NCBI GenBank assembly: GCA_049287005.1
Contig: JBAQEZ010000003.1
Coordinates: forward strand, 265,745 to 329,744
Origin: Candidatus Moraniibacteriota bacterium
GTDB lineage: Bacteria; Patescibacteriota; Minisyncoccia; Moranbacterales; UBA1568
Direction of reading: 5' to 3'
DNA: 64,000 nucleotides
Each line of letters opens with the position of its first letter. The stretch's first letter is position 1. Positions 1,524 to 29,175 of the stretch are shown here, piece after piece. A program made the translations under genes and the position numbers. The notes under the pieces are model-generated. The model saw nothing but the letters and a program-made list of their open reading frames with translations, ran no database searches and was not told where the DNA came from.

Positions 1524-1644
1524 AAAGCTTGCGAATTTGGCGCATTTCTTTGTTATAAGCTCCGATATTCGGCACGGTATTATGAAATACCGCTTACTCC
1601 GTTTCTCACTTGCGCCTCGAACCGCACTCAGATTCGCAAGCTTT
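1524..1644 (+). repeat. Structured intergenic element, copy A: a 13-bp perfect closing stem around a conserved core
   Basis: The stem AAAGCTTGCGAAT (1524-1536) pairs with ATTCGCAAGCTTT (1632-1644). The core contains GC(G/A)CATTTCTTTGTT, the internal hairpin GGTAT-tatgaa-ATACC, GCTTACTCCG and TTGCGCCTCGAAC. A second copy lies at 29053-29175. Confidence 0.6.
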
Positions 1645-1656
1645 ATATAATTCAAA

Positions 1657-2124
1657 TTGAATATGCATGTTGTCGTAGAATACACAGGAGAAGTCAAAAC
1701 TCCCTTCCGAGAGGATTTTTTTCAGAAGATTGCTTTGCGAACGCTTGAGGAATGTCGGTTTTCTTTTTTGGAGGGGAAGGAAATCAGCTTGAATGTCGTC
1801 GCTCTCTCACCGGAGAAAATCCAGGCGCTCAACGCCAAGTATCGCGGGAAAGATGGGGTGACGGATGTCTTGTCCTTCGGCGAGTATGGCGACAGGGAAT
1901 CTCTCGAACGGGGAGAGGAAGAAGAAATATTTTTGGGAGAGATCTTCGTTTGCCCGGCCTTTATCGAAACCGCAGCCAAAGAAGACGAGGTAACCTTCGA
2001 GCGTGAAATGGCGTATATTTTTTCACATGGCGTTTTGCATTTGGTGGGATATGATCACGAGGAAGAGATGTTCGCGATCCAAGAGGCGGTGACAGATGTT
2101 TTTACCGGAGAAAAAAGAGTATAA
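1657..2124 (+). CDS. ybeY: rRNA maturation endoribonuclease YbeY
   Basis: HGVLHLVGYDHEEE is the metal-binding H-x3-H-x5-H motif of YbeY. Confidence 0.85.
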   Translation: MNMHVVVEYTGEVKTPFREDFFQKIALRTLEECRFSFLEGKEISLNVVALSPEKIQALNAKYRGKDGVTDVLSFGEYGDRESLERGEEEEIFLGEIFVCPAFIETAAKEDEVTFEREMAYIFSHGVLHLVGYDHEEEMFAIQEAVTDVFTGEKRV

Positions 2125-2140
2125 TACGGATATAATCTAG

Positions 2141-2515
2141 ATGGTTTTCATTATGAACCGATTTTCTCGAAGTCTTTATTATGCGGTCAAGGGGATTTTT
2201 TTCGCGATACGCAATGAGAGAAATTTTCAGATTGAGATATGTGCAGGAATGGCGGTAGTCGTACTGATGATTGTCTTCCCTTTGTCTTCGTCTGAACGGT
2301 CACTTGTTGTTTTGTCCGTCTCTTTGGTATTGACTTTGGAACTGGCGAATACGGCGTTGGAACGAGTGATGGATATTTTGAAGCCGCGCGTTCATCCGTA
2401 TGCGCGGGTCATCAAGGACGTGATGGCTGGGGCGGTGCTTCTCGCTTCTCTTTCTGCGATTGCGATTGGAATAGTGATTTTTTCCCCCTATATTCTGACA
2501 TCCCTGCATCTGTGA
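2141..2515 (+). CDS. dgkA: prokaryotic diacylglycerol/undecaprenol kinase family protein
   Basis: About 120 aa with three transmembrane segments and an ELANTALERVMD motif that resembles the DgkA active region. Confidence 0.65.
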   Translation: MVFIMNRFSRSLYYAVKGIFFAIRNERNFQIEICAGMAVVVLMIVFPLSSSERSLVVLSVSLVLTLELANTALERVMDILKPRVHPYARVIKDVMAGAVLLASLSAIAIGIVIFSPYILTSLHL

Positions 2516-2528
2516 TCAGCTGAGTCCT

Positions 2529-2556
2529 TTGCGTTTGAAAACTTTCGGGGTATAAT
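2529..2556 (+). promoter_or_regulatory. Possible sigma70-type promoter upstream of ftsA (TTGCGT-16-TATAAT)
   Basis: TATAAT at 2551-2556 with TTGCGT 16 nt upstream. Confidence 0.3.
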
Positions 2557-2621
2557 GCAGAGTGAAGGAGCTCTGTTTTGGAGAGCTTGAATGTTTGATT
2601 TTGACTTTTTTCATTTATAAT

Positions 2622-3884
2622 ATGTCACGAGGCCATTATTATGTCGGTTTGGATATCGGCTCTGCAGAAATTCGGGCAGTGATCGCTCAAGAGATTTCTG
2701 CCGAGGAACCGTTGCGCGTTATCGGCGTCGGCATAGCCCCCTCTTTCGGTATGCGGCGCGGAGTGGTAGTGGATACGGATAGCGTGGCCAAGGCATGTAA
2801 CAGCGCCTTGGAACAAGCCGAACGTATGGCCGGGCACCCGGCGGAGAGTTTGGTGGCGAGCGTCAGCGGAACAGAAATTATCTGCCAGGACGCCTTAGGC
2901 GTGATTGCGGTCGGTCGAGCTGATGGAGAAGTCGTCGAAGATGATGTGGCGCGTGTTCTGGAAGAAGTGCAGGCGCGACTGAGTATGCCGCTCAATCGTG
3001 AGATCATTCATGTCATTCCTAAAGATTATCGTCTGGATGACCAGAAAAATATCAAAAATCCCATCGGTATGCGCGGAGTGCGGCTTGAGATGAACGCGCT
3101 CGTGGTGAGCGGGAGCACGGCACACCTGAAGAATATTTCTCGCAGCCTTGAACAGGCCGGAACGAGCGCGGAGAGTTTCGTGGTAGAGCCGCTGGCTTGT
3201 GCTGAGGCGGTGTTGTCTACCAAACAAAAGGAGCTGGGGACGGTGCTCATCAATATAGGTGGCAGTACCACGACGCTGGCCGTGTTTGAAGATGGAGATT
3301 TGCTGCACCTGGCTGTCTTGCCGGTGGGGAGCGGACACATTACCAACGATATCGCGATCGGACTCCGGACGTCGATCGAAGTGGCGGAAGCGGTCAAACT
3401 GCAATTCGGCAGCGCGATGCCTGAAGACATCAGCAAAAAAGAAGAGATCGATTTGAGCGTTTTTGATTCCCAGGAGGACGTCCTGGTATCACGTCGGCAC
3501 GTCGCAGAGATTATTGAAGCGCGCTTGGAAGAAATCTTTTCTTTCGCAAATGCGGAATTGAAAAATATCGGGCGCGAAGGGCTCTTGCCTGGTGGCGCGG
3601 TCTTGTCCGGCGGAGGAGCCCTCCTTCCTGGCGCGACCGATTTGGCCAAACAAGTGCTGCGGCTGCCCGTTCAAATCGGGTATCCGAAACCGCTTGGTGG
3701 CATCCTCGATCAAGTGGATACTCCGCAGTTTGCGACCGCTGTCGGATTGCTGCTTCTGGCGCAAGCGAACCATTCTCACAAAAGCTCTTTTTCTTCTTCA
3801 AACAAAATGATGAGCGCTCTTCCGGAAAGCGTGTATGATATAATAAGGAAGGTAAAGCGCTGGTCAAAACAATTCCTCCCATAA
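2622..3884 (+). CDS. ftsA: cell division protein FtsA
   Basis: YVGLDIGSAEIRAVIA is the actin-fold phosphate-1 motif, and the protein is FtsA-like along its length. The ATG at 2622 is preferred over the upstream ORF-track start. Confidence 0.9.
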   Translation: MSRGHYYVGLDIGSAEIRAVIAQEISAEEPLRVIGVGIAPSFGMRRGVVVDTDSVAKACNSALEQAERMAGHPAESLVASVSGTEIICQDALGVIAVGRADGEVVEDDVARVLEEVQARLSMPLNREIIHVIPKDYRLDDQKNIKNPIGMRGVRLEMNALVVSGSTAHLKNISRSLEQAGTSAESFVVEPLACAEAVLSTKQKELGTVLINIGGSTTTLAVFEDGDLLHLAVLPVGSGHITNDIAIGLRTSIEVAEAVKLQFGSAMPEDISKKEEIDLSVFDSQEDVLVSRRHVAEIIEARLEEIFSFANAELKNIGREGLLPGGAVLSGGGALLPGATDLAKQVLRLPVQIGYPKPLGGILDQVDTPQFATAVGLLLLAQANHSHKSSFSSSNKMMSALPESVYDIIRKVKRWSKQFLP

Positions 3885-3922
3885 GCGTTATCACAAAAAA
3901 TACATAAACAATAGAAGTTCTT

Positions 3923-3952
3923 CTCGGAAAACAGCGTTTTCCTGAGTTTTTT
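3923..3952 (+). terminator. Rho-independent terminator after ftsA
   Basis: The hairpin CTCGGAAAAC-agcg-GTTTTCCtGAG is followed by TTTTTT. Confidence 0.5.
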
Positions 3953-4098
3953 CGCTACCTTGACACCTTTTCTCGCGTTATGATAGAGTAATGAATCAGA
4001 AACTTTTCTGTCGGAAGGGGTTCCTGGAAAGCGGGAAAGGGAAGGTGTGGCATGGCGACTACTGATTATTTAACCAACTTTTTTTAAAGGGGACACAT

Positions 4099-5352
4099 AT
4101 GGCAGAGATCAAACCCGATATCGAAACGTTTGCGAAAATCAAGGTTGTGGGCGTTGGGGGTTCTGGAGGCAATGGTATTACGCGGATGATCGATGCCAAG
4201 ATTAAGGGCGTAGAATTTGTAGCGATCAATACGGATGCGCAGGCGCTCCATAATTCGAAGGCTCAGGAAAAAATCCATATCGGGAAGAATCTGACCAAAG
4301 GACTGGGTGCCGGTATGAATCCGGAAATCGGACGTCAAGCTGCTGAAGAGAATCGCGACGAAATCCAGGAAGTGCTGAAAGGCGCGGATATGGTATTCGT
4401 CACCTGCGGTTTGGGCGGTGGTACCGGATCCGGCGCGGCTCCGATCGTTGCGGAAACTGCCAAAGAATTGGGAGCGCTGACTGTCGGCGTCGTGACAAAA
4501 CCGTTTGCTTTTGAAGGATCGCAACGCCGTGCGATTGCCGAAGAAGCTCTCGCCAATTTGAAAGACCGTGTCGATACGCTGATTACGATCCCGAACGATA
4601 AACTGCTTTCCATCATTGACCGCAAGACAACACTCGTCAACGCGTTCCGTATCGTCGACGATGTGCTGCGCCAGGGCGTGCAGGGTATTTCCGATCTGAT
4701 TACCAAGCCGGGTATCGTGAATGTCGACTTCGCCGATGTGCGAGCTATTATGGAAGACAGCGGCAGTGCCCTCATGGGTATCGGTATCGCTTCCGGCGAC
4801 AATCGCGCGGTGGAAGCCGCCAAAGCAGCTATCAACAGCCCTCTCTTGGAACTTTCTATCGATGGTGCCAAAGGCGTGCTGTTCAATATTTCTGGTTCCA
4901 GCGATCTGACCATGCTGGAAATCAATGAGGCTGCCAGTATCATTACCGAAAATATCGATCCGAATGCCAAGGTTATTTTCGGGGCGGTGACGGATGATCA
5001 GATCCGCAAGGGCGAGATCCAAATTACGGTGGTTGCGACCGGTTTCGATGTGGCGCGTGTCAATGAACCCACGCTTGGACTGATTACCAATCGTTCCGTA
5101 TCTTCGGCACCCTCTTCTCAATCTCAGCCACGGTATGCGTCTCAGACGGAAGAAGACCGCGCGGAGGATGAAAAAAAAGAGGAACATGAAGATGAAATCC
5201 GTTTCTCCAGCCGGAAAGTCGAACAACCGGTGATGATCATCGAGGAAAAGATTCAGCCACGGAGTATCGCTCCACGCAACGAATCCAAAGAGTTGGTGGA
5301 AGAAGAAGATCTTGAGATTCCCGCGTTCATTCGCCGCAAGATGAAGAAATAA
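4099..5352 (+). CDS. ftsZ: cell division GTPase FtsZ
   Basis: [14 protein letters not shown] is the tubulin signature. There is an acidic C-terminal tail and a conserved C-terminal peptide ([11 protein letters not shown]). Confidence 0.95.
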
Positions 5353-5500
5353 TCGTATCCTTTCTTCGTTCAAGCCACAGAAGAGGCGAAAGGAGCATAG
5401 GCTCCTTTTTCTTTTTTTCATCAGTTTGCTATAGTAGGAGCATCTTGAGCCCCGGCTTTCCCAAAAAGCTCATGAAGCTAAAAGCTAAAAAGCTATTCAT

Positions 5501-5947
5501 ATGCGTTGCCCCTTCTGCAATTTTGAAGACACGAAGGTAGTGGATTCGCGCGATACCCAGGAGGGTCGGGCTATCCGTCGCCGGCGTGAATGCGAGAAAT
5601 GTCAAGCCCGCTTCAGTACGTACGAGGAAGTGGAGATTTTTCATTTGCTGATTGTCAAGAAAGATGGACGCAAGGAAGAGTATGATCGAACCAAAATCGA
5701 ACACGGATTGGAGCGTGCCTTCGTGAAGCGTCCGGCAGCCGAAGAGCGTATCGAGAAAATCATGGGAGAAATAGAATACGCGTTGCATGAAAAGCAGGCG
5801 AGTGAAATTTCCAGCCGGGAAATCGGCACTCTCATCATGCAGAAATTGAAAGAAACCGATGAGGTGGCGTATATCCGTTTTGCGAGCGTCTACAAATCTT
5901 TCGGCAGCGCCAAGAGTTTTCTCAAGGCGTTGGAAACATTGGAGTAA
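5501..5947 (+). CDS. nrdR: transcriptional repressor NrdR
   Basis: MRCPFCNFEDTKVVDSRD...CEKCQARFSTYE is the NrdR zinc ribbon, followed by an ATP-cone. Confidence 0.9.
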   Translation: MRCPFCNFEDTKVVDSRDTQEGRAIRRRRECEKCQARFSTYEEVEIFHLLIVKKDGRKEEYDRTKIEHGLERAFVKRPAAEERIEKIMGEIEYALHEKQASEISSREIGTLIMQKLKETDEVAYIRFASVYKSFGSAKSFLKALETLE

Positions 5948-5956
5948 GAAATTTCT

Positions 5957-6178
5957 ATGTCAAAGATTTTCGTGAAGGTCATTCCGAAGGCGATGAAGAA
6001 TATGGTGGAGTGTATCGCGGAAGGGGAATACCGCGTACGGCTGACCAAGGCTCCGACTGACAATGAGGCGAATGAACAGCTGATGAAGATACTCGGCAAG
6101 CATTTCGGTATCGCACCGAGTCTGATACGTATTGTCTCGGGCGCCAATAGTCGGAAAAAAATTATCGAGTTGCCATAG
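5957..6178 (+). CDS. DUF167/YggU-family small protein
   Basis: About 73 aa; the IFVKVIPKA...VRLTKAP pattern is typical of UPF0235. Confidence 0.55.
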   Translation: MSKIFVKVIPKAMKNMVECIAEGEYRVRLTKAPTDNEANEQLMKILGKHFGIAPSLIRIVSGANSRKKIIELP

Positions 6179-6183
6179 GAGTT

Positions 6184-7665
6184 ATGCGCAAAGATCAGAT
6201 TCTGCTTGCGGCATGCCTGGGATATATCGGAGGAGTCTTCGCGGGCTCTTTTTTTGTTTTGCCGTGGTGGACTTTGTTGTTTGCGGTCTTCTTGCTGCTC
6301 GCCGTTGTGATAGCGTTTCCGCACAGCACGATATTCGCTTGCTTCCTTCCTCTTGGGTTATTCGCTTGTGGTACGTTTTTGGCCACTGCCGCTACGGATC
6401 ATTTTCGCTCGGGCGCGCTGTATCCGGGAGCGGTATCCGGTATGGCACGCGTGGTGGATGATCCGGAAGAAAAGAGTTTTTACCGGCAGGTTATCGTAGC
6501 GTTGGAGTCGTGCGTGAGCGAGCCGTGTCCGTCGGAGAAAATCCTTTGGCAGGCGCCGCGGACGGCAGCTATCGCCGCCGGAGCACGCGTCGCATTTTCC
6601 TGTTCGCTTGCATTGCCGGAGAATTTTGATCCGGCATTCGATTACCGCATGTTTCTGGCCAAGGATAATGTCGCTTACGTCTGTTCGAAAGCAGTGCAGG
6701 CGGATGTGTTGCCGGAAGATACGCGGGCGCGTTTGACGCGCCTCTTTTTCCTGCCGAAACGGGCATTCGAAACGGCGCTGAGCAAGAGTCTACCGCAGCC
6801 GGAAGCGGGATTGGCGGCGGGGCTTTTGATCGGCGGCGGCAATCGTCTGCCAGAAACGGTGCAAGCGGGATTCGTCACGGCGGGGCTTTCTCATATTGTC
6901 GCTATTTCCGGATACAACATCGCTCTCATCGCCCAAGGATTCGTGTTCCTCGGTATCGGTATCGGACTGTGGCGGAGACAAGCGCTCTGGTTCGCTATAG
7001 GAGGCGTCGCATTGTTTGTTTTTCTGGTCGGCGCTCCGGCATCGGCAGTCCGAGCCGGAGTGATGGGGGCGTGCGCCTTTGCGGCGCTTTTTTTCGGTAG
7101 GTTGTCACGAAGCATCAATATGCTGGTGCTCGCCGGAGCCGTGATGCTCTTTTTCCAACCGCTCCTCCTCCGTTATGATATCGGGTTTCAGCTTTCTTTT
7201 CTGGCGACACTGGCTATCATCGTCGCGGCACCATATGTGAACCGACTCGTGTCCAAAGAATTCTTCGGCAAGAGTTTCGTTGAAGCAGCGCTGATCACTT
7301 TTGCGGTGGAGCTTTTTGTTGTGCCATTGATTGCCTATCAATTTCATATTTTTTCTTCTTTTGCGCTTGTCATGAATATTCTTCTGCTCCCGCTGGTGCC
7401 GTATGCGATGGCGGCAGCGTTTATATCTGCGCTCGGATTTTTTCTTTTGCCAGGACTGCATATGCTGCCAGCCGGTATCGCTTATGGTTTTCTGCGCACG
7501 ATCACGTACGCCGTCGAACGATTGAATGCTGTTCCGAGTGCGAAATTCGAGGTGTCCATTCATCCTTGGGGGATTTTCCTCTGGTATACGCTTTTGTTCT
7601 TTGTTATTCTGATGACGCGAAGATATTCTATCCGGAAATATGTCCAAACAGAAAATATATCGTAG
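6184..7665 (+). CDS. comEC: ComEC/Rec2 competence channel, membrane (DUF4131 + competence) part
   Basis: A polytopic membrane protein carrying GLSHIVAISGYNIALIA, the core motif of the ComEC competence domain. Confidence 0.8.
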   Translation: MRKDQILLAACLGYIGGVFAGSFFVLPWWTLLFAVFLLLAVVIAFPHSTIFACFLPLGLFACGTFLATAATDHFRSGALYPGAVSGMARVVDDPEEKSFYRQVIVALESCVSEPCPSEKILWQAPRTAAIAAGARVAFSCSLALPENFDPAFDYRMFLAKDNVAYVCSKAVQADVLPEDTRARLTRLFFLPKRAFETALSKSLPQPEAGLAAGLLIGGGNRLPETVQAGFVTAGLSHIVAISGYNIALIAQGFVFLGIGIGLWRRQALWFAIGGVALFVFLVGAPASAVRAGVMGACAFAALFFGRLSRSINMLVLAGAVMLFFQPLLLRYDIGFQLSFLATLAIIVAAPYVNRLVSKEFFGKSFVEAALITFAVELFVVPLIAYQFHIFSSFALVMNILLLPLVPYAMAAAFISALGFFLLPGLHMLPAGIAYGFLRTITYAVERLNAVPSAKFEVSIHPWGIFLWYTLLFFVILMTRRYSIRKYVQTENIS

Positions 7666-8488
7666 GCTCCTAGTTCTTATTTTTTGCGCGGGCCTTTTTG
7701 CTGCGGGTATTTCGTGGCTGGAGGCTTATCAAAAAATAACCACCGTCACATTTCTCGCTGTCGGAGAAGGGGACGCCATACTCATCTCTCAGGGATCGAA
7801 TCAGATTCTCATCGACGGGGGACGGACAGGAAAGGACTTGCTTTCACGACTGGGAAGACGGATGCTATTCTGGGATCGGACGGTAGAAATTGTCATCGCG
7901 ACGCACCCCGACGCTGATCATATCGGCGGTTTTACCGATTTGCTTGTGGCGTATCATGTGGATAAATTTCTGTACACCGGGGCGGAGAGCAAAACGGAAA
8001 CATACGCGTTGTTGCAGAAAGCGCTGGCGGCACAATATACCGATATGCTCAAGATATTCCGTGGAGGTACGGTACGGTTGCCTGGCGGCGGAGACCTTTC
8101 TATCGAATATCCGCTCACGCCATTGCCTCAAGAGACGGCAGAGGCTAACACGGGGAGTATCGTGGCACGTTTCACCTATGGGGCGACGCAGATGTTGTTT
8201 ACGGGGGATTTACCGAGTGAGGAAACAGTGCTTCCGGACACGGCGCCGGTCGCTATTTTGAAGGTCGCGCATCACGGGTCTCGCTATTCGACTAGTGCGG
8301 CCTTTTTGGATCTCGTGAAACCGCAGGAAGCCGTCATTTCCGTGGGGAAGAATATGTACGGTCATCCGACCCTGGATGTTATAGAGCGTCTTTTGGAACA
8401 TCATGTACGGATCCACCGCACGGATACGGAGGGTGATATATCGTATCGGTGCACGGAAGAACTTGGAAAATGTGTTTTTGTGCAGTAA
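7640..8488 (+). CDS. comEC: ComEC C-terminal metallo-beta-lactamase domain, encoded as a separate, overlapping ORF in another frame
   Basis: One N-terminal TM helix is followed by FLAVGEGDAILI...HPDADHIGG, an MBL fold. It overlaps the upstream ORF by 26 nt. Confidence 0.75.
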   Translation: MSKQKIYRRLLVLIFCAGLFAAGISWLEAYQKITTVTFLAVGEGDAILISQGSNQILIDGGRTGKDLLSRLGRRMLFWDRTVEIVIATHPDADHIGGFTDLLVAYHVDKFLYTGAESKTETYALLQKALAAQYTDMLKIFRGGTVRLPGGGDLSIEYPLTPLPQETAEANTGSIVARFTYGATQMLFTGDLPSEETVLPDTAPVAILKVAHHGSRYSTSAAFLDLVKPQEAVISVGKNMYGHPTLDVIERLLEHHVRIHRTDTEGDISYRCTEELGKCVFVQ

Positions 8489-8644
8489 CAGCAAAAATTC
8501 TTTTGGTCGGCGAACGAGTCTCTGATTGCTCAAAACAATAAAAACTACCCTTACTCGGTGAGGCTGAGATTGATGAGAATTGCCAGGATTGTTTTTTTGT
8601 GTCATGCTTCTATAAAGCAGAATAATTGGTTTAGAAGCAATATT

Positions 8645-9250
8645 ATGGCGGCGCATCCGAAGAAAGAACGCTCATTCGTGATCATCAAGCCGGACGGCGT
8701 GCAGCGTGCCCTCATTGGCAGCATTATCGATCGTTTCGAGCGGACGGGATTGAAATTCATCGCCATGAAACTCATCGTGCCGAAGGCGGAGCAGTGCTGG
8801 GCGCATTATAACAAAGATGAAGCCTGGTTCTTGAAAAAAGGGACGCGTGTCCTTGAGGATCGTCAGGCACAAGGGCTGCCGGTGGAAAAAGAAGCGATTG
8901 AATATGGAAGAGATATCATCGGTCAGCTTGCTGATTTTATGACCTCTGGACCGGTACTGGCTTTTGTTGTCGAAGGAAATCAGTCAGTCGCTATTGTGAA
9001 GAAGCTTGTGGGAGGGACTGAGCCGACGACTTCCGATGTGGGAACGATCCGCGGTGATTTCACTGTCGATTCCTACACGCTTTCCAGCTTGGACAATCGT
9101 GCGGTACGCAATCTCGTGCATTGTTCGGATAGTCCGGAAGAAGCGGAGCGGGAGATTCCCATCTGGTTTGAGAAAAATGAACTGATTGGTTATCGCCTTG
9201 TCGGGGAGCAGATCCTCTACGATGTGAACCTCGACGGTATCTTGGAATAG
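8645..9250 (+). CDS. ndk: nucleoside diphosphate kinase
   Basis: ERSFVIIKPDGVQRALIGSIIDRFERTGLKFIAMK is the NDK N-terminal signature. The ATG at 8645 is preferred. Confidence 0.9.
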   Translation: MAAHPKKERSFVIIKPDGVQRALIGSIIDRFERTGLKFIAMKLIVPKAEQCWAHYNKDEAWFLKKGTRVLEDRQAQGLPVEKEAIEYGRDIIGQLADFMTSGPVLAFVVEGNQSVAIVKKLVGGTEPTTSDVGTIRGDFTVDSYTLSSLDNRAVRNLVHCSDSPEEAEREIPIWFEKNELIGYRLVGEQILYDVNLDGILE

Positions 9251-9286
9251 ACTTTTTCGCCTGAAAGCAGCTTCTTTTCTTGGGGG

Positions 9287-9315
9287 TTGCTTTTTTGATG
9301 TTTTTGTAGTATAAT
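9287..9315 (+). promoter_or_regulatory. sigma70-like promoter (TTGCTT-17-TATAAT)
   Basis: TTGCTT at 9287-9292, a 17-nt spacer, then TATAAT at 9310-9315. It would drive a transcript through 9322-9740 and possibly the tRNA-Pro. Confidence 0.4.
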
Positions 9316-9416
9316 GAGGTATTGGGAGCAGAACAGTGTTTCTAATGACAGCATGGTTCTTTGGTGCCCTGAGCAGGAAGACAGGGCGATTTTAGTGAAA
9401 AACAGGAGGAAAAAAA

Positions 9417-9623: not shown

Positions 9624-9743
9624 ATTTTCCGGCAAATAACAAGGAGACATCTCACAGGAGGCGACCAAGTATCATCTGGCCGCCTTTAAAATTTCCCCAA
9701 AAGTATGGTAGAGTGAGATGGTGCTTTTTGATATAAAGAATAG

Positions 9744-9814: not shown

Positions 9815-10000
9815 CTGTGAGTATTTTGATAGAATAAGGCTGGGGGGCGCAAAATGAACTGCTTCACTTTGTGCGAGCGTTTCCGTGAGACGTCTCGGCT
9901 CATGGATTAAAAACGCTCTGGAACTTGTAGTCGGAGTCCGATTCTCCGCGCCCCGACAATGAAGATAAAGTAAACTTTTTTTGGTAGCTTATCTGATAAA

Positions 10001-20739: not shown

Positions 20740-20753
20740 TCATAATTAAGCAT

Positions 20754-21467
20754 ATGGAAATTCTTGCCAGTTTGAAAGATGTTCACAAAGAATATCGGAT
20801 GAGCAAAGTGCTGACCATCCCGGCGCTTAATGGTGTCACTCTGGATATCTTCAAAGGCGAGTTCCTGGCGATTACCGGACATTCCGGCTCCGGAAAGAGC
20901 ACGATGCTGAATATTCTGGGGCTTCTGGACGAACCGACACGCGGCGAGATGTATTTCGCGGGACACGAAGTCCACAATTTTACGGAAAAGCAGAGAGTCG
21001 ATCTGCGTTTGAATACGATGAGTTTTGTGTTTCAGTTTTTCAATCTGATTGACAATTATACGGCGCTGGAAAATATAAAATTCCAGCTGTTCCTGCAGGG
21101 CTGTGGCGGCAGGGAGGCGAATCGTCGATCGCAAGAAATTATTGATTTTTTGGGGCTCAAGGAACGTGCTTCCTTTTTCCCGCACGAGCTTTCCGGCGGC
21201 GAACAGCAGCGAGTGGCTATCGGGCGGGCGCTCGCCAAGGACTCCCTGATCATTATGGCTGATGAACCGACGGCGCATCTGGATTCCGCGAACGGGCAGG
21301 CAACTATCCAGTTATTGCACGATATCAACAAGAAATTCAATCGGACAGTGGTTCTGGTGACGCACGAAGAAGAGGAGGCGCGTCATGCTGATCGCAACGT
21401 GATGATGAGTGACGGAAAAATCTTGGAAATCAAGATACACCAAAAGATTGAAATAAAGCCTGAGTAG
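20754..21467 (+). CDS. ABC transporter ATP-binding protein (MacB/LolD-type)
   Basis: GHSGSGKST is Walker A, LSGGEQQRVAIGRAL is the signature motif, and IIMADEPT is Walker B. Confidence 0.9.
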   Translation: MEILASLKDVHKEYRMSKVLTIPALNGVTLDIFKGEFLAITGHSGSGKSTMLNILGLLDEPTRGEMYFAGHEVHNFTEKQRVDLRLNTMSFVFQFFNLIDNYTALENIKFQLFLQGCGGREANRRSQEIIDFLGLKERASFFPHELSGGEQQRVAIGRALAKDSLIIMADEPTAHLDSANGQATIQLLHDINKKFNRTVVLVTHEEEEARHADRNVMMSDGKILEIKIHQKIEIKPE

Positions 21468-21484
21468 ATGCTATAATTGGAAGT

Positions 21485-23038
21485 ATGCAAGGCAAAAAAA
21501 TAATTCTTACCATTCTGGTACTCGCGTTTTTGGGAGGCGCGGGACTTTTTGTATTTTTGAAATTTACGACAACCGAAAACGCAAAAAATATTTCTCCGGA
21601 AAATGGTAACGGATTTGTTGTCCAGAGTGGTTCTGCCGACCCTTCTGTGGAAGTGGATGACGCAGCACTTGTTCCGAAGGAAGACATGCACCTGGCGTTT
21701 GAGATGGGCGGAAAAATCCAAAAAGTGCTGGTAACGGAAGGACAAAGCGTGAACGAGGGAGATGCCCTGGTACAACTGGATACGACACAGCTGGCTATCG
21801 TCAAACGGCAGGCAGAGGCCGGAGTGAAGCAGGCACGGGCCGGCTTGGATAGATTGATCAATGGACTAACGGTGGCAGATCTCAAAGTCTTGCAAGCTGG
21901 TAAGAAGTCCGCTGATGAGTCGGCCGATGCTTTGCATGGAGGCGTCTTGGACGCCTTGCAGGGTTCTTTCACAGCGGCGGATGACGCAATGCGCGGCAAA
22001 ACGAATGCGCTTTTTACTGATCCGGATGGCGCGGATCCACAATTGAATATCCCGGTTTCTGACAGCAGCCTCGAGTTGGCTATCGAATCGTCTCGCCTCG
22101 AATTGAATACGGATCTGGAGTCTTTCAAAAATCGTGTCAATGGCCTAGGTTCGGGTAGTGATCCGGATAAAGAAACATCTCATGCCAAAGATTTTCTCAA
22201 TGAAGTGGCTAGTTATCTGACGAATGTAGCCAAGGCAGTGGATATACTGACGACTGCAGACGGTCTTACTCAAGACGAAATCGATGCCTTGAATGTGGCG
22301 GTTTCTACTGGTCGGGGAGAAGTGGATACAGCCAAAGCCGCCCTGGCCAAGGGATTGGCAAAGTTCAGCTTAGCGAATGGGGCATTTTCAGTAGCCACGA
22401 AGGATTATAAATCGAAAACGGTCGGACCGCGGCCGGAAGATATCGCGGTTGCGACCGCGCAAGTAGATGTGGCACGCGACCAGCTGAGCCTGGTAAATGA
22501 ACAGATAGCGAAAACTATATTAATTGCACCACATGCCGGAATGGTGAGTAAGATATGGTTCAAGGAAGGAGAAATTGATCCAGCTGGCCAGCCGGTCATC
22601 TCTTTTCGTAGTTCAGAAATGAAGATCCAGGCTGACGTGCCGGAAGAGGATATTTTGAAAGTTGCTATTGGTTCAGCTGCACGCGTAAAATTCAAAGCAT
22701 TGGTGCAGACAGTTTTTTTCGGAAAAGTCGACGCTATCGAAGCTCATGAAATCAACAAAGATGGGGATGTTTATTATCGCGTAGATATCGGGTCGTCGGA
22801 CTTTAACCCGCCTTTGCGTTCAGGTATGACCGCAGACGTGTTCATTGATTCGGCAGAGCAAGATAGTGCCATCAAGATTCCCTCAAGCTATGTCAGCTGG
22901 CGCGCCGGCCGTAGTTATGTTACGGTTGTAAATGCCGGTAAACGGCAAGAGGTCGAGGTCGAAACCGGAGCGACTGACGGAGACTCCACTGAGATCAGCA
23001 GCGGACTACAGGAAGGTCAGCAGCTCCTTTCGCCCTAA
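21485..23038 (+). CDS. HlyD-family periplasmic adaptor (membrane fusion protein)
   Basis: An N-terminal TM helix; the biotin/lipoyl-like hairpin GGKIQKVLVTEGQSVNEGDALVQLDTT; a long helical segment; a C-terminal beta-barrel. Confidence 0.75.
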   Translation: MQGKKIILTILVLAFLGGAGLFVFLKFTTTENAKNISPENGNGFVVQSGSADPSVEVDDAALVPKEDMHLAFEMGGKIQKVLVTEGQSVNEGDALVQLDTTQLAIVKRQAEAGVKQARAGLDRLINGLTVADLKVLQAGKKSADESADALHGGVLDALQGSFTAADDAMRGKTNALFTDPDGADPQLNIPVSDSSLELAIESSRLELNTDLESFKNRVNGLGSGSDPDKETSHAKDFLNEVASYLTNVAKAVDILTTADGLTQDEIDALNVAVSTGRGEVDTAKAALAKGLAKFSLANGAFSVATKDYKSKTVGPRPEDIAVATAQVDVARDQLSLVNEQIAKTILIAPHAGMVSKIWFKEGEIDPAGQPVISFRSSEMKIQADVPEEDILKVAIGSAARVKFKALVQTVFFGKVDAIEAHEINKDGDVYYRVDIGSSDFNPPLRSGMTADVFIDSAEQDSAIKIPSSYVSWRAGRSYVTVVNAGKRQEVEVETGATDGDSTEISSGLQEGQQLLSP

Positions 23039-23112
23039 GAGACTTTTGAGCAGACACTGAGAACAGTAGATTATTGAAGGAGCTGTCTTTTAAATTATCT
23101 GAATCTTATCGT

Positions 23113-24201
23113 ATGTTTCATTTTTTATACGTCCATATTTTCAGAAGAATAGTTTTTTTGCTTGATCCTGAAAAAGTGCATGATGGCATAGTGATGTTTG
23201 GAAGGAATTTGGGCAAATATAGTCTCACAAGGAAGATGACCAGAAGCCTATTGAGTTATCAGAACCAGGCTCTTTCGCAAACGGTAAGAGGAATACATTT
23301 CTCTAATCCGGTCGGGCTTTCAGGTGGCTTCGACAAGAATGCTGAGCTGACTGATATTATTCCGGAGGTTGGTTTTGGCTTTATGGAAATCGGTTCGGTC
23401 ACTGGAGAAAAATGTGATGGCAATGCAAAGCCGCGGTTGTGGCGACTCAAAAAATCCAAAAGTATCCTGGTCTATTATGGTTTGAACAATGATGGTGCCG
23501 AAGCTATTGCTCAAAGGTTGCGGGGAAAAAAGTTCAGGATTCCCGTCGGTGCCAATATCGCTAAGACGAATAATCAGAATACGGTAGGGAAAGAAGCCGG
23601 CGCAGCCGATTATTTGAAAGCTTATAAAGCGATGCAGGACATAGCTGATTATTTTACGATCAATATCAGCTGTCCGAATGCCTATGGCGGCTGCCCGTTT
23701 ACGGACAAAGAGTATCTGGATCATTTATTGTCGAGACTTGCAGAAGTTCCCAAGACAAAGCCGAGCTTTATCAAGCTCTCGCCCGATCTTTCGCATGAAG
23801 AAATCGACGGTATCATCGAGGTGGCCAGAAAACACGATATCGATGGGTTCGTTTGTTCGAATCTGACCAAGAGCCGCAACAATCCGAAGATCGTAGAAAA
23901 AGATTTTTCTGAATGTGGAGGGATGAGTGGAAAAGTAGTCATAGATCTTTCCAATGATCTCGTCGAGTATATTTATCGGAAAACAGGGAAAGAGTTCGTG
24001 CTCATCGGCCTAGGCGGTATTTTTTCCGCCGAGGATGCGTATAAGAAAATCCGTCTGGGCGCAACCTTGGTGGAACTGATAACGGGCATGATTTTTGAAG
24101 GCCCTCAGGTGATCGGTGATATCAATCAGGGGCTGGTAAAATTGTTAAAAAAAGATGGCTTCAAGAATATTTCCGAGGCAATTGGTGCCGATATCAGATA
24201 A
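23113..24201 (+). CDS. pyrD: dihydroorotate dehydrogenase-like flavoenzyme (class-2-type N-terminus)
   Basis: LDPEKVHDGIV is the class-2 N-terminal region. GFGFMEIGSVT, GLNNDG and NISCPN (Cys where class 2 has the catalytic Ser) also fit. GGIFSAEDAYKKIRLGATLVEL closes the FMN site. Confidence 0.75.
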   Translation: MFHFLYVHIFRRIVFLLDPEKVHDGIVMFGRNLGKYSLTRKMTRSLLSYQNQALSQTVRGIHFSNPVGLSGGFDKNAELTDIIPEVGFGFMEIGSVTGEKCDGNAKPRLWRLKKSKSILVYYGLNNDGAEAIAQRLRGKKFRIPVGANIAKTNNQNTVGKEAGAADYLKAYKAMQDIADYFTINISCPNAYGGCPFTDKEYLDHLLSRLAEVPKTKPSFIKLSPDLSHEEIDGIIEVARKHDIDGFVCSNLTKSRNNPKIVEKDFSECGGMSGKVVIDLSNDLVEYIYRKTGKEFVLIGLGGIFSAEDAYKKIRLGATLVELITGMIFEGPQVIGDINQGLVKLLKKDGFKNISEAIGADIR

Positions 24202-24211
24202 GATACGTCTT

Positions 24212-24868
24212 ATGCAGATTGATTTTTGTCGGGCTCGCTGTGATGCTGATCAACAGGGTGCGTTCGATCTTGTTTCAGAGGAATATAAGAAGGACGGATA
24301 TATCGATGTTGACGCCCGTCCGGACATCCCTGTCTATAATTTTTTGCTGACCTCGGCAACTTTTATCGCTAAGGCTGATAAGACAATAATCGGAACGGTG
24401 ACAATCGTTGGTGATGGGGAAAAAGGCTTGCCCATGGAAAATATCTATGAGGAAGAAATCGGGGAGCTGCGTTGGTCTGGAAAAAAAATGGCGGAAATCT
24501 CGCAATTAGCAATCAAGCGCGGAACGGCTGAAAATCCGGATATGCATCAAAGAAAAATCCAGACGAGCATTCCGCTTGCCCTCTTCAGGGTCGTTTATTT
24601 TTTTGCGAAAAGCCAGGGTATCGGGAATTTCTGTATCGCCATCAATCCGAAGCATGAAACTTTTTATAAATTACTCGGCTTCGAAGACATCGGTGGATTG
24701 AAAAGCTATTCTTTTGTCAACGGTGCTCCAGCTTTGGCCAGGATGTTGGACATCACGCAGGATCCCAAAGTACTGGCAGAAAAAAGCTTTATTTTTGATG
24801 AGATAATAAAAAATCCGCTGACGGCAGGGGATTTTGAACAAGCAATCATTTTTTCGCAAGAAATCTAG
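24212..24868 (+). CDS. putative GNAT-fold N-acyltransferase (FeeM/OlsB/autoinducer-synthase-like)
   Basis: About 218 aa. The call rests on overall residue pattern and size only; it is not motif-proven. Confidence 0.35.
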   Translation: MQIDFCRARCDADQQGAFDLVSEEYKKDGYIDVDARPDIPVYNFLLTSATFIAKADKTIIGTVTIVGDGEKGLPMENIYEEEIGELRWSGKKMAEISQLAIKRGTAENPDMHQRKIQTSIPLALFRVVYFFAKSQGIGNFCIAINPKHETFYKLLGFEDIGGLKSYSFVNGAPALARMLDITQDPKVLAEKSFIFDEIIKNPLTAGDFEQAIIFSQEI

Positions 24869-25938
24869 ACATTCTTCATAATTTTCTCGATTGCTTTTCT
24901 GCCGGAAACGGCGGATGGGCCTTTGGCATAGCCCAAACGGAAAAGAGCGACTGGAGTTTCGTTTTTCAGGTTTGGAAACGTTGCGTGAAAAAAATCAGCA
25001 ATCTCATTTTGTATCCGTTGATACTTCGGAGAGAGACCTCCTCGGGATAAGCGCTGGTTGAGTATCAGACACAGCGTTCCGAAAAGCGGTTGCATAAAGA
25101 TATTTTTCGTCGTCAGATATAGCCAGATGGCTTGCATTGCTCGTCCTCCTCCGAGGTAGGTGTGTGGATGGTGATCCTTGGAGTATGTTATGAAGGCGAG
25201 CGCTCCGGATCTTTTCACGTTTTGACTAGTATGTATCACTGAACCGACCCCCATGACTTTCCAAAGAAGCTTGATCTTTTCTGCCAGATAGATGGTCGGT
25301 TTGAAAAAATGCTTTTTCAGCCCGAGTTCTAGGCTTTCTAAGGGCAAGCCGACGACGGCCTGTTCATTTTTTTCAAAGCTGACCATGCGTAGCAGGTTAT
25401 CGCGTAAAGCCTTATCTCCCCAAAGTATGTAGTCATGAATACCTATGATTCGAGAAAATTGTTTGATGATTTGTGGATCTTCAATCCAACACAGATGGGC
25501 GCCTTTCGCTTCGGCCAAGGCTTGGAGCTTATTTTTGATATCTCTGGCTATTTTTTTCGTCGAGTAAGCGCGACGGTTCGTTTTTCGCTTGGCGAGAGAA
25601 TCAAGCAGATCTGATGAATAAGGATCGTGGGTTTTTTTGAGTTCGATTTTTGCTATAGGATGAGCACTTTCAAAAAAATTGATTTCTGGCGTGTATCCCA
25701 AGTGATGCGCCTGTACGTGCATGTTTTCGATGACCGCTCCTAAGCTGACATAATCAGCGAAAAAATCGATATTGTACAAATGATTGGCAGCCGTATGTTC
25801 CACGTCATGATGCACATAAATCGCATTTTCTTCAACGGTAAAAAACCACGGCTGGGAGTTATCCGCAGACGGTGAAAGTCGACCGGCCTCGATTATTTTC
25901 TGAATATTTTCTTTCATTTTCAAAATCTCAGTCATCAC
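24865..25938 (-). CDS. tandem nitroreductase-fold flavin oxidoreductase (SagB/ThcOx-like dehydrogenase candidate)
   Basis: The N-terminal half AGRLSPSADNSQPWFF is a nitroreductase FMN motif. The second half begins RRAYSTKKI, typical of a second nitroreductase-like subdomain. Confidence 0.55.
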   Translation of the reverse strand: MMTEILKMKENIQKIIEAGRLSPSADNSQPWFFTVEENAIYVHHDVEHTAANHLYNIDFFADYVSLGAVIENMHVQAHHLGYTPEINFFESAHPIAKIELKKTHDPYSSDLLDSLAKRKTNRRAYSTKKIARDIKNKLQALAEAKGAHLCWIEDPQIIKQFSRIIGIHDYILWGDKALRDNLLRMVSFEKNEQAVVGLPLESLELGLKKHFFKPTIYLAEKIKLLWKVMGVGSVIHTSQNVKRSGALAFITYSKDHHPHTYLGGGRAMQAIWLYLTTKNIFMQPLFGTLCLILNQRLSRGGLSPKYQRIQNEIADFFHATFPNLKNETPVALFRLGYAKGPSAVSGRKAIEKIMKNV

Positions 25939-25965
25939 ATAAGGCGGGGCACCGTGAATAGTCGT

Positions 25966-26838
25966 TTAGAGACGGCCGCGAGATTTCAGGACTGAAGTCA
26001 TAATGATTCGTTTCAGGCGCTGGATCGGATTCTTGTTACCGAAAGGCACCCAGACCCTTTTGAGTTTTTTCAGGTATGGATCAAAGTGCAAGGATGCCGG
26101 TGCCGAGCGTACTTTTTCTCCGAAGATAATTTTCAGGGCTTCGCAGGAAACAAGGTTGGCGCATAAGAGGGTTCCCGTGACCAACGAGGGAGCCTTTCTT
26201 TCTTTCCAATTGACAGCATCCGGATTGAAATAAGATCTTTGAAGCAAGGTGGGAGTCAGTCCGAGACCGAAGCGTACGAGCATCTCTTCTTTTGTCTGGC
26301 TATCTTCAAGATCGAAATATTCATCGAAGCGCATTCCCTGTGGGTTGAAGACGAGCATGGAAGAACCGAAGCCGACGGGTCCGGCCGTGAGGGCGAAGAG
26401 GCCGCGCTTCTGTGACTCTCGAAACAGCATCCGCCGGGTCGCGATACTGAAGAAGTCTATTCCATCCAAAACAATATCGGTATTATCCAGAAACTCCGCG
26501 ATATTCTCATCGTGGATGCCTTTGGGAAAGGCGGTCACTTTTGCGTAGGGATTGATCGCGAGGATCATGTTTTTTATCACCTCGGTTTTCGGTTTTCCGG
26601 CAGTCTCTATCGTTGATCCGGCCTGGCGATTCATATTGCCCACTTCGAAAACATCGAGATCGGCAATATGAAAATTTCCGAATCCCAGGCGAGCGAAAGT
26701 GGTCGCATAGATCCCGCCTGCGCCTCCCAGCCCGGCTATGGCGACTGTACTCTCTCGGAGCTTCTCTTGCTGTTCGTCCGTCAGAAGGCCCTTATTCCGT
26801 GAAAAGGCTTCCTGATAAAAGCGTAATGATTCGTCCAT
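25966..26838 (-). CDS. ThiF/MoeB/HesA-family E1-like adenylyltransferase
   Basis: IAGLGGAGGIYATTFARLGFGNFHIADLDVFEVGNMNRQ is a Rossmann-type nucleotide loop plus the E1 NRQ motif. The start is placed at MDESL (26838). The ORF-track start at 26892 would run through the shared upstream motif. Confidence 0.75.
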   Translation of the reverse strand: MDESLRFYQEAFSRNKGLLTDEQQEKLRESTVAIAGLGGAGGIYATTFARLGFGNFHIADLDVFEVGNMNRQAGSTIETAGKPKTEVIKNMILAINPYAKVTAFPKGIHDENIAEFLDNTDIVLDGIDFFSIATRRMLFRESQKRGLFALTAGPVGFGSSMLVFNPQGMRFDEYFDLEDSQTKEEMLVRFGLGLTPTLLQRSYFNPDAVNWKERKAPSLVTGTLLCANLVSCEALKIIFGEKVRSAPASLHFDPYLKKLKRVWVPFGNKNPIQRLKRIIMTSVLKSRGRL

Positions 26839-26867
26839 AGCGATAAGGTTAATAGCTTTATTACCAA

Positions 26868-26900
26868 ACGAGTGCCGGTAAAATCGGGTCAATACCCGTT
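26868..26900 (-). promoter_or_regulatory. Shared upstream motif, copy 2 (reverse complement AAATAACGGGTATTGACCCGATTTTACCGGCACT)
   Basis: It matches 18196-18228 except at one position (A/C, right after TTGAC). It lies upstream of the ThiF-like gene. Confidence 0.45.
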
Positions 26901-27248
26901 ATTTTAGAATCTTGCGACTATCTGGTAGTGCGGAAAAGTATAGATAGACCGTCTTAAAAAATCATGGTATCGCAAAATCATACCAAATGCAATTTCAATG
27001 TATTGCCAAACCATTCGAATGATAAATAACGCAACTGTTTTTCAGGAAAATGCTCTTTATAGTGCTATTCCCTATGTCAAAGGTATGAGGGAAATCACTC
27101 TATATATTATACAAAATATACGTGAGAAGCGCCATCTCAGAACTTCAAGTGAGGGTTACCAATCGGCCTAAGTCTATTGTTATATTTTCTGACTTCAATT
27201 AACAATTCAGGAGACTAAAGACTAGGATGATACAGCGGGCCGAGAACC

Positions 27249-27277
27249 TTGACAGATATTTCGTCAGCTGTTATTAT
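27249..27277 (+). promoter_or_regulatory. sigma70-type promoter upstream of tuf (TTGACA-17-TATTAT)
   Basis: TTGACA at 27249-27254, a 17-nt spacer, TATTAT at 27272-27277. Confidence 0.4.
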
Positions 27278-27432
27278 TCTCAGTGATGCTTTTACCCAAG
27301 CTTTTTTCATTTTTGTTTGGAAAAACTTTGGAGCGAAAAGAACATTTTTGAGTAAAAAATAATTCGTAATTATTAGGAGAGCACGGATACTTTACGGAAC
27401 GTAAAGGCACGCGCAATCATACGATAAAAGTT

Positions 27433-28623
27433 ATGGCAGAGCAATTTGACCGCAGCAAGCCCCATGTAAACGTCGGTACAATTGGCCACGTTGACCACGG
27501 CAAAACAACCTTGACCGCCGCTATTTTGCATGTCCAGCATTTCTTGGGCATGGCGAAAGAAAAGGGTATCGACGAAATCGACAAGGCTCCAGAAGAGCGC
27601 GAGCGCGGTATCACTATCGCGACAGCTCATTGTGAGTATGAAACTGAAAAGCGTCATTACGCGCATGTTGATTGCCCTGGTCACGCTGACTATATCAAGA
27701 ACATGATTACGGGTGCCGCTCAGATGGACGGTGCTATCCTCGTGGTCTCTGCTACTGATGGTCCGATGCCGCAGACACGTGAGCATATCCTCTTGGCTCG
27801 CCAGGTAGGTGTGCCGGCTATCGTTGTTTTTTTGAACAAGGTAGACATGGTGGATGACGCGGAACTCATTGAGCTCGTGGAAGCTGAAGTGCGCGAACTC
27901 CTTTCCAAATATGAATTTGATGGCGATAAGGCGGTTATCATTCGTGGCAGCGCTTTGAAAGCTTTGGAATCGAAATCAGCTGATGATGCTGATGCCAAGC
28001 CGATTCTTGATCTCATGAAGGCTATCGATGAAAACATTCCACAGCCAGTGCGTGATCTGGACAAGCCGTTCCTCCTCCCGATCGAAGATATTTTCTCGAT
28101 TGAAGGTCGTGGTACGGTAGTGACTGGTCGTATCGAGCGCGGTATCGTGAATGTCGGTGACGAAGTGGAAATCGTCGGTCTCCGTGATACTGCCAAGACG
28201 GTGGTAACGGGTATCGAAATGTTCAACAAATCTCTGAATCGCGGTGAATGTGGTGATAATGCCGGTATCCTGATTCGTGGTATCAAGAAGGAAGATGTCG
28301 AGCGCGGTCAGGTTTTGGCCAAGCCAGGTTCCATCACTCCGCATACGGAATTTGATAGCGAAGTCTATGTGTTGTCCAAAGAAGAAGGTGGACGCCACAC
28401 TCCGTTTTTCAAAGGATACAAACCGCAGTTTTATATTCGCACCACTGACGTGACTGGCGAAGTAGAATTGCCGGAAGGCACTGAAATGGTGATGCCGGGT
28501 GACACTGTGAAGCTCAAGATCAAGCTTTTGGCACCTGTGGCCATGGAAGAAGGGATGCGCTTCGCCATTCGTGAAGGTGGCCGTACGGTCGGTGCCGGCG
28601 TCGCAACCAAGATTTTGAAATAG
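27433..28623 (+). CDS. tuf: elongation factor Tu
   Basis: [27 protein letters not shown] and NKVDMVDD are the G1, G3 and G4 motifs. Confidence 0.97.
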
Positions 28624-28725
28624 TTTTTGAGGGAATCGAGTGACGAGTCATCCGCCGGTTGGCGAATGACTCCCACGATCATTCTCTTGAAGAAGGGGAT
28701 AAACAGGTACTTATAAAACGACGCA

Positions 28726-29052
28726 ATGAAAAAGACAGAAACGACGCAGAATCTGCGTGTCAGGATTAAAATCAAGGCTTACGATCACAAGGTGATTGAT
28801 CAGTCTGCCAGGAAAATCGTCGAAACAGCCGAACGTACCGGCGCAGTGATTACCGGTCCGGTGCCGCTGCCGACAGAAATCCACAAGGTGACCGTTAATC
28901 GTTCCACGTTCGTGCACAAGAACTCTCGCGATCAGTATGAGATGCGGGTACACAAGAGATTGATCGATATCGTCAACCCGACGGCCAAAACGATCGAGAA
29001 CCTGACGAACCTGGATCTCCCCGCCGGAGTCGATGTCGAAATTAAAATGTAA
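28726..29052 (+). CDS. rpsJ: 30S ribosomal protein S10
   Basis: [28 protein letters not shown]... Confidence 0.95.
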
Positions 29053-29175
29053 GAGAATTCTTCTCTTCGGCACATTTCTTTGTTGCAACCTCTAGTGCTC
29101 GACGCTGTATTATGAAATACAGCTTACTCCGCGCTTCGGTTGCGCCTCGAACTGTACTCGAAGAGAAGAATTCTC
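29053..29175 (+). repeat. Structured intergenic element, copy B (17-bp perfect closing stem)
   Basis: GAGAATTCTTCTCTTCG (29053-29069) pairs with CGAAGAGAAGAATTCTC (29159-29175). The core shares GCACATTTCTTTGTT, TGTAT-tatgaa-ATACA, GCTTACTCCG and TTGCGCCTCGAAC with copy A. Confidence 0.6.

Follow-up and report, generated by a model that had tools for sequence, protein, structure and literature searches.

Two intergenic elements of ~123 nt in a 64-kb window of a Candidatus Moraniibacteriota genome (contig JBAQEZ010000003.1, positions 265,745 to 329,744 of the forward strand; "the window" denotes this whole 64,000-nucleotide stretch, whose own numbering is used below) belong to a new family of miniature inverted-repeat transposable elements (MITEs) of this candidate phyla radiation (CPR) phylum, and not to a free-standing riboswitch- or ribozyme-like motif. 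Copy A lies between yqeY and ybeY, and copy B lies between rpsJ and rplC. In the reading that we prefer, and to which we give a probability of about 0.6, both are old members of a ~124-bp noncoding palindromic MITE family of Candidatus Moraniibacteriota that have been exapted by the host. A sequence-only reading of the same DNA had taken the pair for a conserved structured RNA; the target-site duplications found in relatives, together with a test for wobble pairs, changed that interpretation.

The description of the two copies themselves held up. Both were found at the expected sites on the + strand, in sense orientation in the yqeY/ybeY and rpsJ/rplC contexts (Table 1), and they share four blocks in identical order. 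The closing stem P1 is perfect over 13 bp in copy A, where it extends to 17 bp with one T:G pair, and over all 17 bp in copy B, and the apical hairpin covaries as had been noticed (CGGTAT/ATACCG in A versus GCTGTAT/ATACAGC in B). The cores are 77% identical over 94 nt (BLASTN E = 2.4e-15), and GTATTATGAAATAC occurs exactly twice in the window versus 0.29 expected sites even with two mismatches permitted. Both copies fold better than their shuffled sequences (z = -4.8 for A and -7.6 for B; 0 of 200 shuffles as good), and the reverse strands do so equally well (z = -4.5 and -8.5, respectively). No promoter-like or terminator-like signal was found within either copy; the GC-rich stem followed by a U tract of an intrinsic terminator is absent at A and B, and the copies are not followed by T-rich sequence. 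The view that no known riboswitch or ribozyme is involved also stood, as a scan of the window against Rfam 15 at gathering thresholds returned no structured RNA family and a scan of copy A at E <= 10 returned chance matches of the miRNA-precursor type only, with no ribozyme or riboswitch among them.

The window has a match in a Candidatus Moraniibacteriota metagenome-assembled genome (GCA_049304235.1). Relatives were collected from public genomes and metagenome contigs (loci designated by L-numbers). Searching one genome per species for an exact pattern from the 3′ blocks yielded 15 copies at 14 loci, and metagenome contigs, searched independently for a 5′ pattern, added 39 loci. A covariance model made from 16 copies found 43 full copies, 42 of them distinct; it scored copy A at 124.6 bits and copy B at 141.2 bits, and these are the only two copies in the window. 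Every copy with a named host belongs to Candidatus Moraniibacteriota: nine of the 14 first-scan loci are so labeled, and the other five (L005, L011, L015, L017, and L018), titled "uncultured Bdellovibrionales," are probably taxonomic mislabels of third-party metagenome-assembled genomes, because in gene content and in the element itself they agree with Moraniibacteriota. The elements are 121 to 131 nt long, with one 151-nt variant. All are intergenic, and inspection by eye found no ATG-initiated open reading frame (ORF) in the core. Two subfamilies can be told apart, sf1 (the window's type) and sf2 (with a different center), in which the second internal loop is entirely different and the inner ~25 nt of each end are kept. 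Internally deleted derivatives also exist in the family; L033 carries a variant with a 27-nt insertion, and L064 has family-type arms around a degenerate core of ~40 nt that the covariance model missed.

The closing stems of A and B had been described as unrelated in sequence, which is correct for the two copies compared with each other and incorrect across the family, where the arms share a consensus (TAGGACTTnCGnnTTTGG / CCAAAnnCGnAAGTCCTA, also given as TAGGACTTACGC..TTTGG). Arm positions 1 to 8 and 14 to 18 are conserved, and the middle 4 to 5 bp are hypervariable; the commonest arm, GGACTTACGC, is found in many genomes and in both subfamilies. Compared with the sf1 arm consensus, B differs at 8/17 positions and A at 5/17, with every P1 pair intact in both, and the 5′ arm of copy A agrees with the family arm consensus TAGGACTTnCGnnTTTG at 12/18 positions. 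The arms of A and B are the most diverged versions of one family terminal inverted repeat.

Mobility is recorded at the ends of the copies and at empty sites. Perfect 5-bp target-site duplications stand at the exact boundaries of six copies (L010, L019, L026, L040, and both copies in L030), with TAAAA, AGTTA, TGAAT, CCATA, TAAAG, and GTTTA as the six duplicated sequences, and a 5-bp direct repeat matching at 4/5 positions flanks the copies in L036 and L047. In a boundary-shift control, at most 3 perfect repeats were seen. The duplications are confined to sf2 and to sf1 copies with consensus-like arms, and we take the copies that carry them to be young; their termini read 5′-TAGGAC...GTCCTA-3′. 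No duplication is recognizable at the window copies (3/5 matches at A, 2/5 at B). The 5-bp duplications suggest a DDE-type enzyme.

The rpsJ-rplC junction is empty, with neither element nor hairpin, in L002, L058, L061, and L062, in which the S10 protein is 98 to 100% identical. The yqeY-ybeY junction consists of TAA-CGCT-ATG only in L065 and L066, and an orthologous copy occupies it in L067 (9395-9518). Conversely, L002 has a copy in the tuf-rpsJ spacer (L002:1-55, 40.5 bits by the covariance model), where the window is empty. The element is thus gained and lost between close relatives, and the 42 distinct copies are spread over ~20 or more gene junctions. In L010 the empty site can be reconstructed as ...TTA AAA/TAA ATG, with no spacer at all; the element inserted (at the slash) precisely at the junction of the last sense codon and the stop codon of mreB, and its own TAG now terminates the gene. 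Two loci hold paired copies: two tandem sf2 copies lie 74 nt apart in L030 (708-1031, - strand), each with its own 5-bp duplication, and a convergent pair surrounds rpmI in the infC-rpmI-rplT region of L046 (8175-8662), with a sense copy after infC and an antisense copy after rpmI.

Overall, the family has the features that define a MITE, i.e., size, shared terminal inverted repeats, duplications, and dispersed filled and empty sites, an identified parent insertion sequence (IS) excepted. No transposase, and no split ends with an intervening ORF, was found beside any copy in ~570 kb of loci. The variability of the stems had been used as an argument against a MITE, and this argument is overturned by the 5-bp duplications, the empty sites, the variable center, and the diverged terminal inverted repeat. 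Target-site duplications and a variable core, the signs of a mobile palindrome that the sequence-only reading had set against its own RNA motif, were looked for, and both were found. Plasmid and phage collections contained no similar sequence, and no IMG/VR contig had an exact match to either search pattern; a viral origin was rejected on the latter ground.

Other origins for the stem were also considered. Insertion of the core into a preexisting terminator hairpin was rejected, as the empty sites in L058 (TAA-T-AGAATA-TTCG) and L065 (TAA-CGCT-ATG) are free of hairpins. The possibility that an arm is an inverted copy of the target flank, hinted at by a GAAGAG..TC remnant in L002, was dropped since the consensus shows that the arms belong to the element. 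A duplicated TA target of the IS630/Correia type, suggested by the TA...TA ends, was rejected because the duplications are 5 bp long, and a target-derived origin of the 5-bp hypervariable stem middle was rejected because a direct duplication cannot yield inverted complements.

In the consensus, the element folds into a rod with neither branch nor junction, made up of P1 (17 bp), P1b, P2, P2b, and the apical hairpin P3; P1 and P1b together make a helix of ~24 bp with single-base bulges, and the invariant nucleotides are located in internal loops between covarying helices. Over 39 consensus pairs in the 42 distinct copies, 93.4% of the cells are paired, versus 79.3% in column shuffles (0 of 500 reached the observed value) and 19 to 44% in controls with slid partners. 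Changes on both sides were found in 26 of the 39 pairs (252 cells). The sf1 arms are ~30% off consensus with a mean of 0.9/15 P1 pairs mismatched, and the core is ~12% off. The middle of the 17-bp closing stem drifts freely, Watson-Crick pairing being kept via double substitutions. That pairing is kept as sequence changes, proposed at the outset from two copies, was therefore borne out by the family and also in place between orthologues.

The element is retained at the same junction in different species, including those of pilC, infC, khpA, a pilin gene, and yqeY, among others. At the PilC site (L011 versus L017), 78/83 core positions are identical against 16/35 arm positions, which are still paired, with codon identities in the upstream gene of 0.39 at third and 0.82 at second positions. 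At the infC site (L006 versus L046a), the figures are 65/82 for the core and 19/35 for the arms, with 0.41 at third codon positions. Window copy A and its orthologue in L067 share 69/83 core and 30/35 arm positions, with 0.42 to 0.57 at third codon positions; three compensated double changes separate them, two in P1 and one in the neighboring P1b helix. L067 was found through YbeY, and L046a was likewise not ascertained by pattern, and both comparisons are therefore free of pattern ascertainment. Across all orthologous pairs, the core is 79 to 96% identical and third codon positions of the upstream gene are 31 to 57% identical, i.e., saturated. In four of the eight orthologous pairs, change in the ~85-nt asymmetric core does not exceed that at second codon positions, and in the best pair the core's conservation in place is stronger than theirs.

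Placement is equally regular. Of the 33 sf1 copies, 26 follow a sense ORF (78 aa or longer) whose stop codon lies -9 to +3 nt from the element, often as the first arm triplet (TAG-GACTT), and the next gene usually starts 3 to 44 nt past the 3′ arm. The upstream genes encode S10, YqeY, IF3, L10, AtpB, SecD, SecG, MreB, MreC, PilC, KhpA, pilins, and others. About 19 independent sites are in sense orientation versus 2 clear antisense ones (binomial p ~2e-4), the latter being L046b, between rpmI and rplT, and L018, before yebC. The sf2 copies are not stop adjacent. Tiny original spacers account for part of the stop-codon adjacency; in spacers of 20 to 120 nt, the element still lies at the stop-codon end. 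Sense orientation is also kept at the infC site, where the skew is negative. Stop adjacency, the infC-site orientation, and an operon context lacking promoter or terminator signals would together favor a role at the transcript level.

Two specific signals were considered in this connection. Shine-Dalgarno-like 4-mers precede 5 of 62 starts in the window, versus a 13% background, and are not enriched; the organism appears not to use Shine-Dalgarno sites. Because of this lack of enrichment, mimicry of the anti-Shine-Dalgarno sequence by CUCC/CCUC loops is a weak idea. Mimicry of boxA or of a leader-trailer helix was unsupported. The element's CATTTCTT(T/C)GTTGCAA shares ATTTCTTT..GTTG(G)CAA with a 16S leader in L037; a boxA-like reading of CATTTCTTYGTT is unsupported, the critical third T being C in about half of the copies. 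In the L037 leader itself (2613-3100, - strand; the contig is Moraniibacteriota-like), a boxA-like TATTTCTTTATAAAC comes after a boxB-like hairpin (TTGTCCGACGCCATGTCGGACAA), in partial resemblance to the element's CATTTCTTTGTTGCAA block.

Several observations weigh against exaptation and against a role in RNA. The RNA-level constraint that had been deduced from the pairing is not borne out by the mismatches: the sf1 non-Watson-Crick cells comprise 17 G-U, 32 A-C (22 without one pair), and 35 other mismatches, so that G-U is not commoner than A-C and the wobble signature of an RNA helix is absent. The mismatch spectrum resembles raw mutational input, both strands fold equally well, and an attempt to assign the functional strand from G-U versus A-C gave no signal. 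The sense bias is confounded with GC skew. On the element strand this skew is positive in 31 of the 33 sf1 copies and clearly positive (> +0.04) in 28, and the orientation bias could therefore reflect replication-dependent insertion; over the entire window the skew is positive on the + strand. Separating gene from replication orientation by local GC skew was tried, but there are only four discordant copies, two of which follow the gene (L006 and L046a) and two the skew (L018 and L046b). At rpsJ-rplC, relatives have lost the element, retain a stem only with a degenerate core (L064), or have an unrelated hairpin instead (L063); this junction can therefore do without any function that the element may have for the host. 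In L064 (10337-10415) the remnant consists of a 19-bp stem with family-type arms and the ~40-nt core, and in L063 (1273-1385) the junction holds an AT-rich hairpin of ~100 nt with no clear similarity to the element. Lastly, the exact-match patterns by which copies were found enrich for conserved ones.

These observations are what would be expected of a purely selfish MITE without host function, its hairpin maintained at the DNA level and its stop adjacency marking where insertion is harmless in a compact genome. Pairing would then be kept by quasipalindrome correction (template switching within a strand, or mismatch repair acting on a hairpin or cruciform) or through a single-stranded transposition intermediate as proposed for REPINs, mobile hairpins in which compensatory changes have already been described (PMC3116915). 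The target-site duplications and empty sites, a mismatch spectrum without G-U excess, the equal folding of both strands, an orientation that tracks GC skew, and decay and loss at rpsJ-rplC all fit, as does the spacer-less empty site in L010, where the stop codon was the only harmless target. We nevertheless regard this explanation as unlikely, if still a serious one. Neutral decay cannot give core conservation next to saturated synonymous sites, and arm-to-arm correction cannot hold asymmetric loops and a core at 79 to 96% identity across species that are synonymous saturated. Gene conversion among copies offers no explanation either, as A and B are only 77% identical within one genome and copies are thus not homogenised, and the element keeps to the stop-codon end even in the 20- to 120-nt spacers. 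For these reasons we infer that the resident copies are under host-level purifying selection and hence exapted; the host probably uses the retained elements.

Host use need not be at the RNA level. An oriented protein-binding or cruciform site at gene ends, polarized with replication and comparable to BIME/REP sequences that serve, e.g., a topoisomerase or nucleoid protein, would agree with the positive element-strand skew of nearly all copies, with strictly Watson-Crick pairing that is symmetric between strands, and with the conserved core sequence. Such a site would not, however, require a stop codon within 9 nt of its start, the orientation of L006 and L046a agrees with the gene rather than with the skew, and a candidate binding protein is lacking; we consider this the least probable of the readings weighed here.

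The core could alternatively be a new catalytic or ligand- or protein-binding RNA, such as a self-cleaving ribozyme that travels with a mobile element and cuts the operon transcript between cistrons. Small ribozymes typically have a long, variable closing stem, and invariant internal-loop nucleotides flanked by covarying helices, the sense orientation, and the best pair's conservation in place beyond second codon positions would all be in keeping with such a module. Against these stand the lack of any Rfam ribozyme or riboswitch match even at E <= 10, an unbranched rod with no junction, a second internal loop that differs wholly between subfamilies, the lack of G-U tolerance, and the retention of the stem and not the core in L064. 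As an explanation of the family as a whole, it is a long shot.

Returning to the exapted MITE, the element would be cotranscribed with its operon, and the transcript would fold between two cistrons into a rod hairpin of ~60 bp (P1, P1b, P2, P2b, and P3). The hairpin may act on the polycistronic mRNA as ERIC and Correia elements do, e.g., by offering a site for double-strand-specific processing or for stability control, which would uncouple the cistrons; alternatively, it may loop the insertion out, keeping the stop and the next start adjacent in a genome without Shine-Dalgarno sites. The conserved internal loops would presumably be a protein-binding or tertiary-structure module. A bolder version, which we put forward tentatively as possible rather than probable, is that a CPR lineage has domesticated a MITE as a structured RNA placed between cistrons. 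Its core would be a new module (a protein-binding platform or self-cleaving motif) that sets the relative expression of neighboring cistrons in compact non-Shine-Dalgarno operons, and the long closing stem, free to vary in sequence and located at the stop codon, would belong to the mechanism. Candidate cistron pairs for such control would be, e.g., infC/rpmI, rplJ/rplL, atpB/atpE, and pilC/pilin.

Table 1. Elements, adjacent genes, and other hairpins in the window
Feature	Position	Strand	Remarks
yqeY	1068-1520	+	PF09424; gene 5′ of copy A, stop codon abuts element
Copy A, whole element	1523-1645	+	~123 nt; yqeY stop (TAA 1518-1520) 3 nt upstream; ybeY ATG (1663) 17 nt downstream
Copy A, 5′ arm of closing stem P1	1523-1539	+	TAAAGCTTGCGAATTTG
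Copy A, core	1540-1628	+	GCGCATTTCTTTGTT, helices P2 and P2b, apical hairpin, GCTTACTCCG, TTGCGCCTCGAAC
Copy A, apical hairpin	1575-1592	+	CGGTAT-TATGAA-ATACCG
Copy A, 3′ arm of P1	1629-1645	+	CAGATTCGCAAGCTTTA
ybeY	1663-2124		gene 3′ of copy A
tuf-rpsJ spacer	28624-28725	+	empty site in window; L002 has element copy here
rpsJ (S10)	28726-29052	+	PF00338; gene 5′ of copy B, stop codon abuts element
Copy B, whole element	29053-29175	+	directly after rpsJ stop (TAA 29050-29052); rplC ~150 nt downstream
Copy B, 5′ arm of P1	29053-29069	+	GAGAATTCTTCTCTTCG; 100% complementary
Copy B, core	29070-29158	+	apical hairpin GCTGTAT-TATGAA-ATACAGC at 29104-29123
Copy B, 3′ arm of P1	29159-29175	+	CGAAGAGAAGAATTCTC
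rplC leader	29183-29300	+	between copy B and rplC start
rpsH-rplF hairpin	36412-36501	+	90 nt, 4 nt past rpsH stop
Hairpin between convergent genes	60901-61005		34-nt arms

The window contains three further structures. The leader between copy B and rplC is conserved in every relative, whether the element is present or not. Its sequence is CTCGTTCAAGTCyC...variable insert...GGGATACTAAGCGArCC, with the pairings CUCGUU/AGCGAG and AGUCCC/GGGAUACU, and is followed by a terminator-like hairpin and a T-run. It has no Rfam match even at E <= 10 and may be a ribosomal protein attenuator upstream of rplC. An unrelated hairpin (34-nt arms, 82% complementary) fills the rpsH-rplF spacer, which is only 7 to 10 nt long in L058, L059, and L064; like the element, it is a lineage-specific hairpin inserted behind a stop codon in a ribosomal operon, the second such case. 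The long hairpin between convergent genes (88% complementary), with an A-run before it and a T-run after it, looks like a bidirectional terminator. It has relatives of 73 to 78% identity in L046 (9079-9157), L016 (840-905), and L003 (3241-3300), and therefore represents a second dispersed hairpin family in the phylum.

CPR bacteria, which cannot so far be cultured on their own, have tiny genomes in which few mobile elements or regulatory RNAs have been recognized. In these hosts, whose gene regulation is almost uncharted, a small transposon has repeatedly landed exactly at the ends of genes in essential operons and has then been better conserved than synonymous sites over long evolution. The object is of a familiar kind; what sets it apart is how cleanly its long-term retention shows. 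If that conservation reflects host function, the family would be a clean case of MITE exaptation and would provide a sequence-defined handle on posttranscriptional operon control in CPR bacteria. It also holds a caution for motif hunting, in that compensatory stem changes alone cannot separate an RNA motif from mobile palindromic DNA.

Four known systems invite comparison. Integron attC sites are imperfect palindromes that directly follow a gene's stop codon in a single orientation and are recognized by structure, not sequence. The element resembles them as a stop-abutting imperfect palindrome in one orientation, but it lacks R''/R' core sites (RYYYAAC/GTTRRRY), ends in TAGGAC/GTCCTA, and has housekeeping genes, not cassettes, as neighbors; its conserved center and variable stem are the opposite of attC. 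No integrase was found among the called or scanned neighboring genes, which cover the annotated part of the loci DNA. REPINs presumably move by a Y1/HUH single-strand mechanism, without target-site duplication and linked to RAYT genes. Like the element, they are mobile noncoding hairpins with conserved end modules in which the hairpin is kept as sequence changes, compensatory changes included (PMC3116915). The Moraniibacteriota family differs from them in its 5-bp duplications and in having no associated gene beside its copies, no RAYT-like gene having been seen among the neighboring genes examined near any copy.

The enterobacterial ERIC/IRU elements, 127-bp imperfect palindromes, are closer. 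They have the same size, are likewise rod-like and noncoding, occur at low to moderate copy number within operon intergenic regions (transcribed in the case of ERIC), and are long-lived; an effect of ERICs on the stability of adjoining mRNA segments has been reported (PMC2229807). There is no sequence similarity, the phylum is a different one, and, unlike ERIC, the family described here has a 5-bp duplication, strong stop adjacency with sense bias, and a hypervariable stem middle that is always paired. The Correia/NEMIS elements of Neisseria are 100- to 155-bp MITEs with long terminal inverted repeats that are cotranscribed with their neighbors into a long hairpin cut by RNase III (PMC2229807), and the P1-P1b helix would be a substrate of this kind. 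The target duplicated by Correia elements is TA, and the sequence of their inverted repeats is kept, whereas the Moraniibacteriota family duplicates 5 variable bp and its arms diverge with compensation. In its working the element would be most like ERIC and Correia, palindromic MITEs that are transcribed as part of operons and act through RNase III or mRNA stability.

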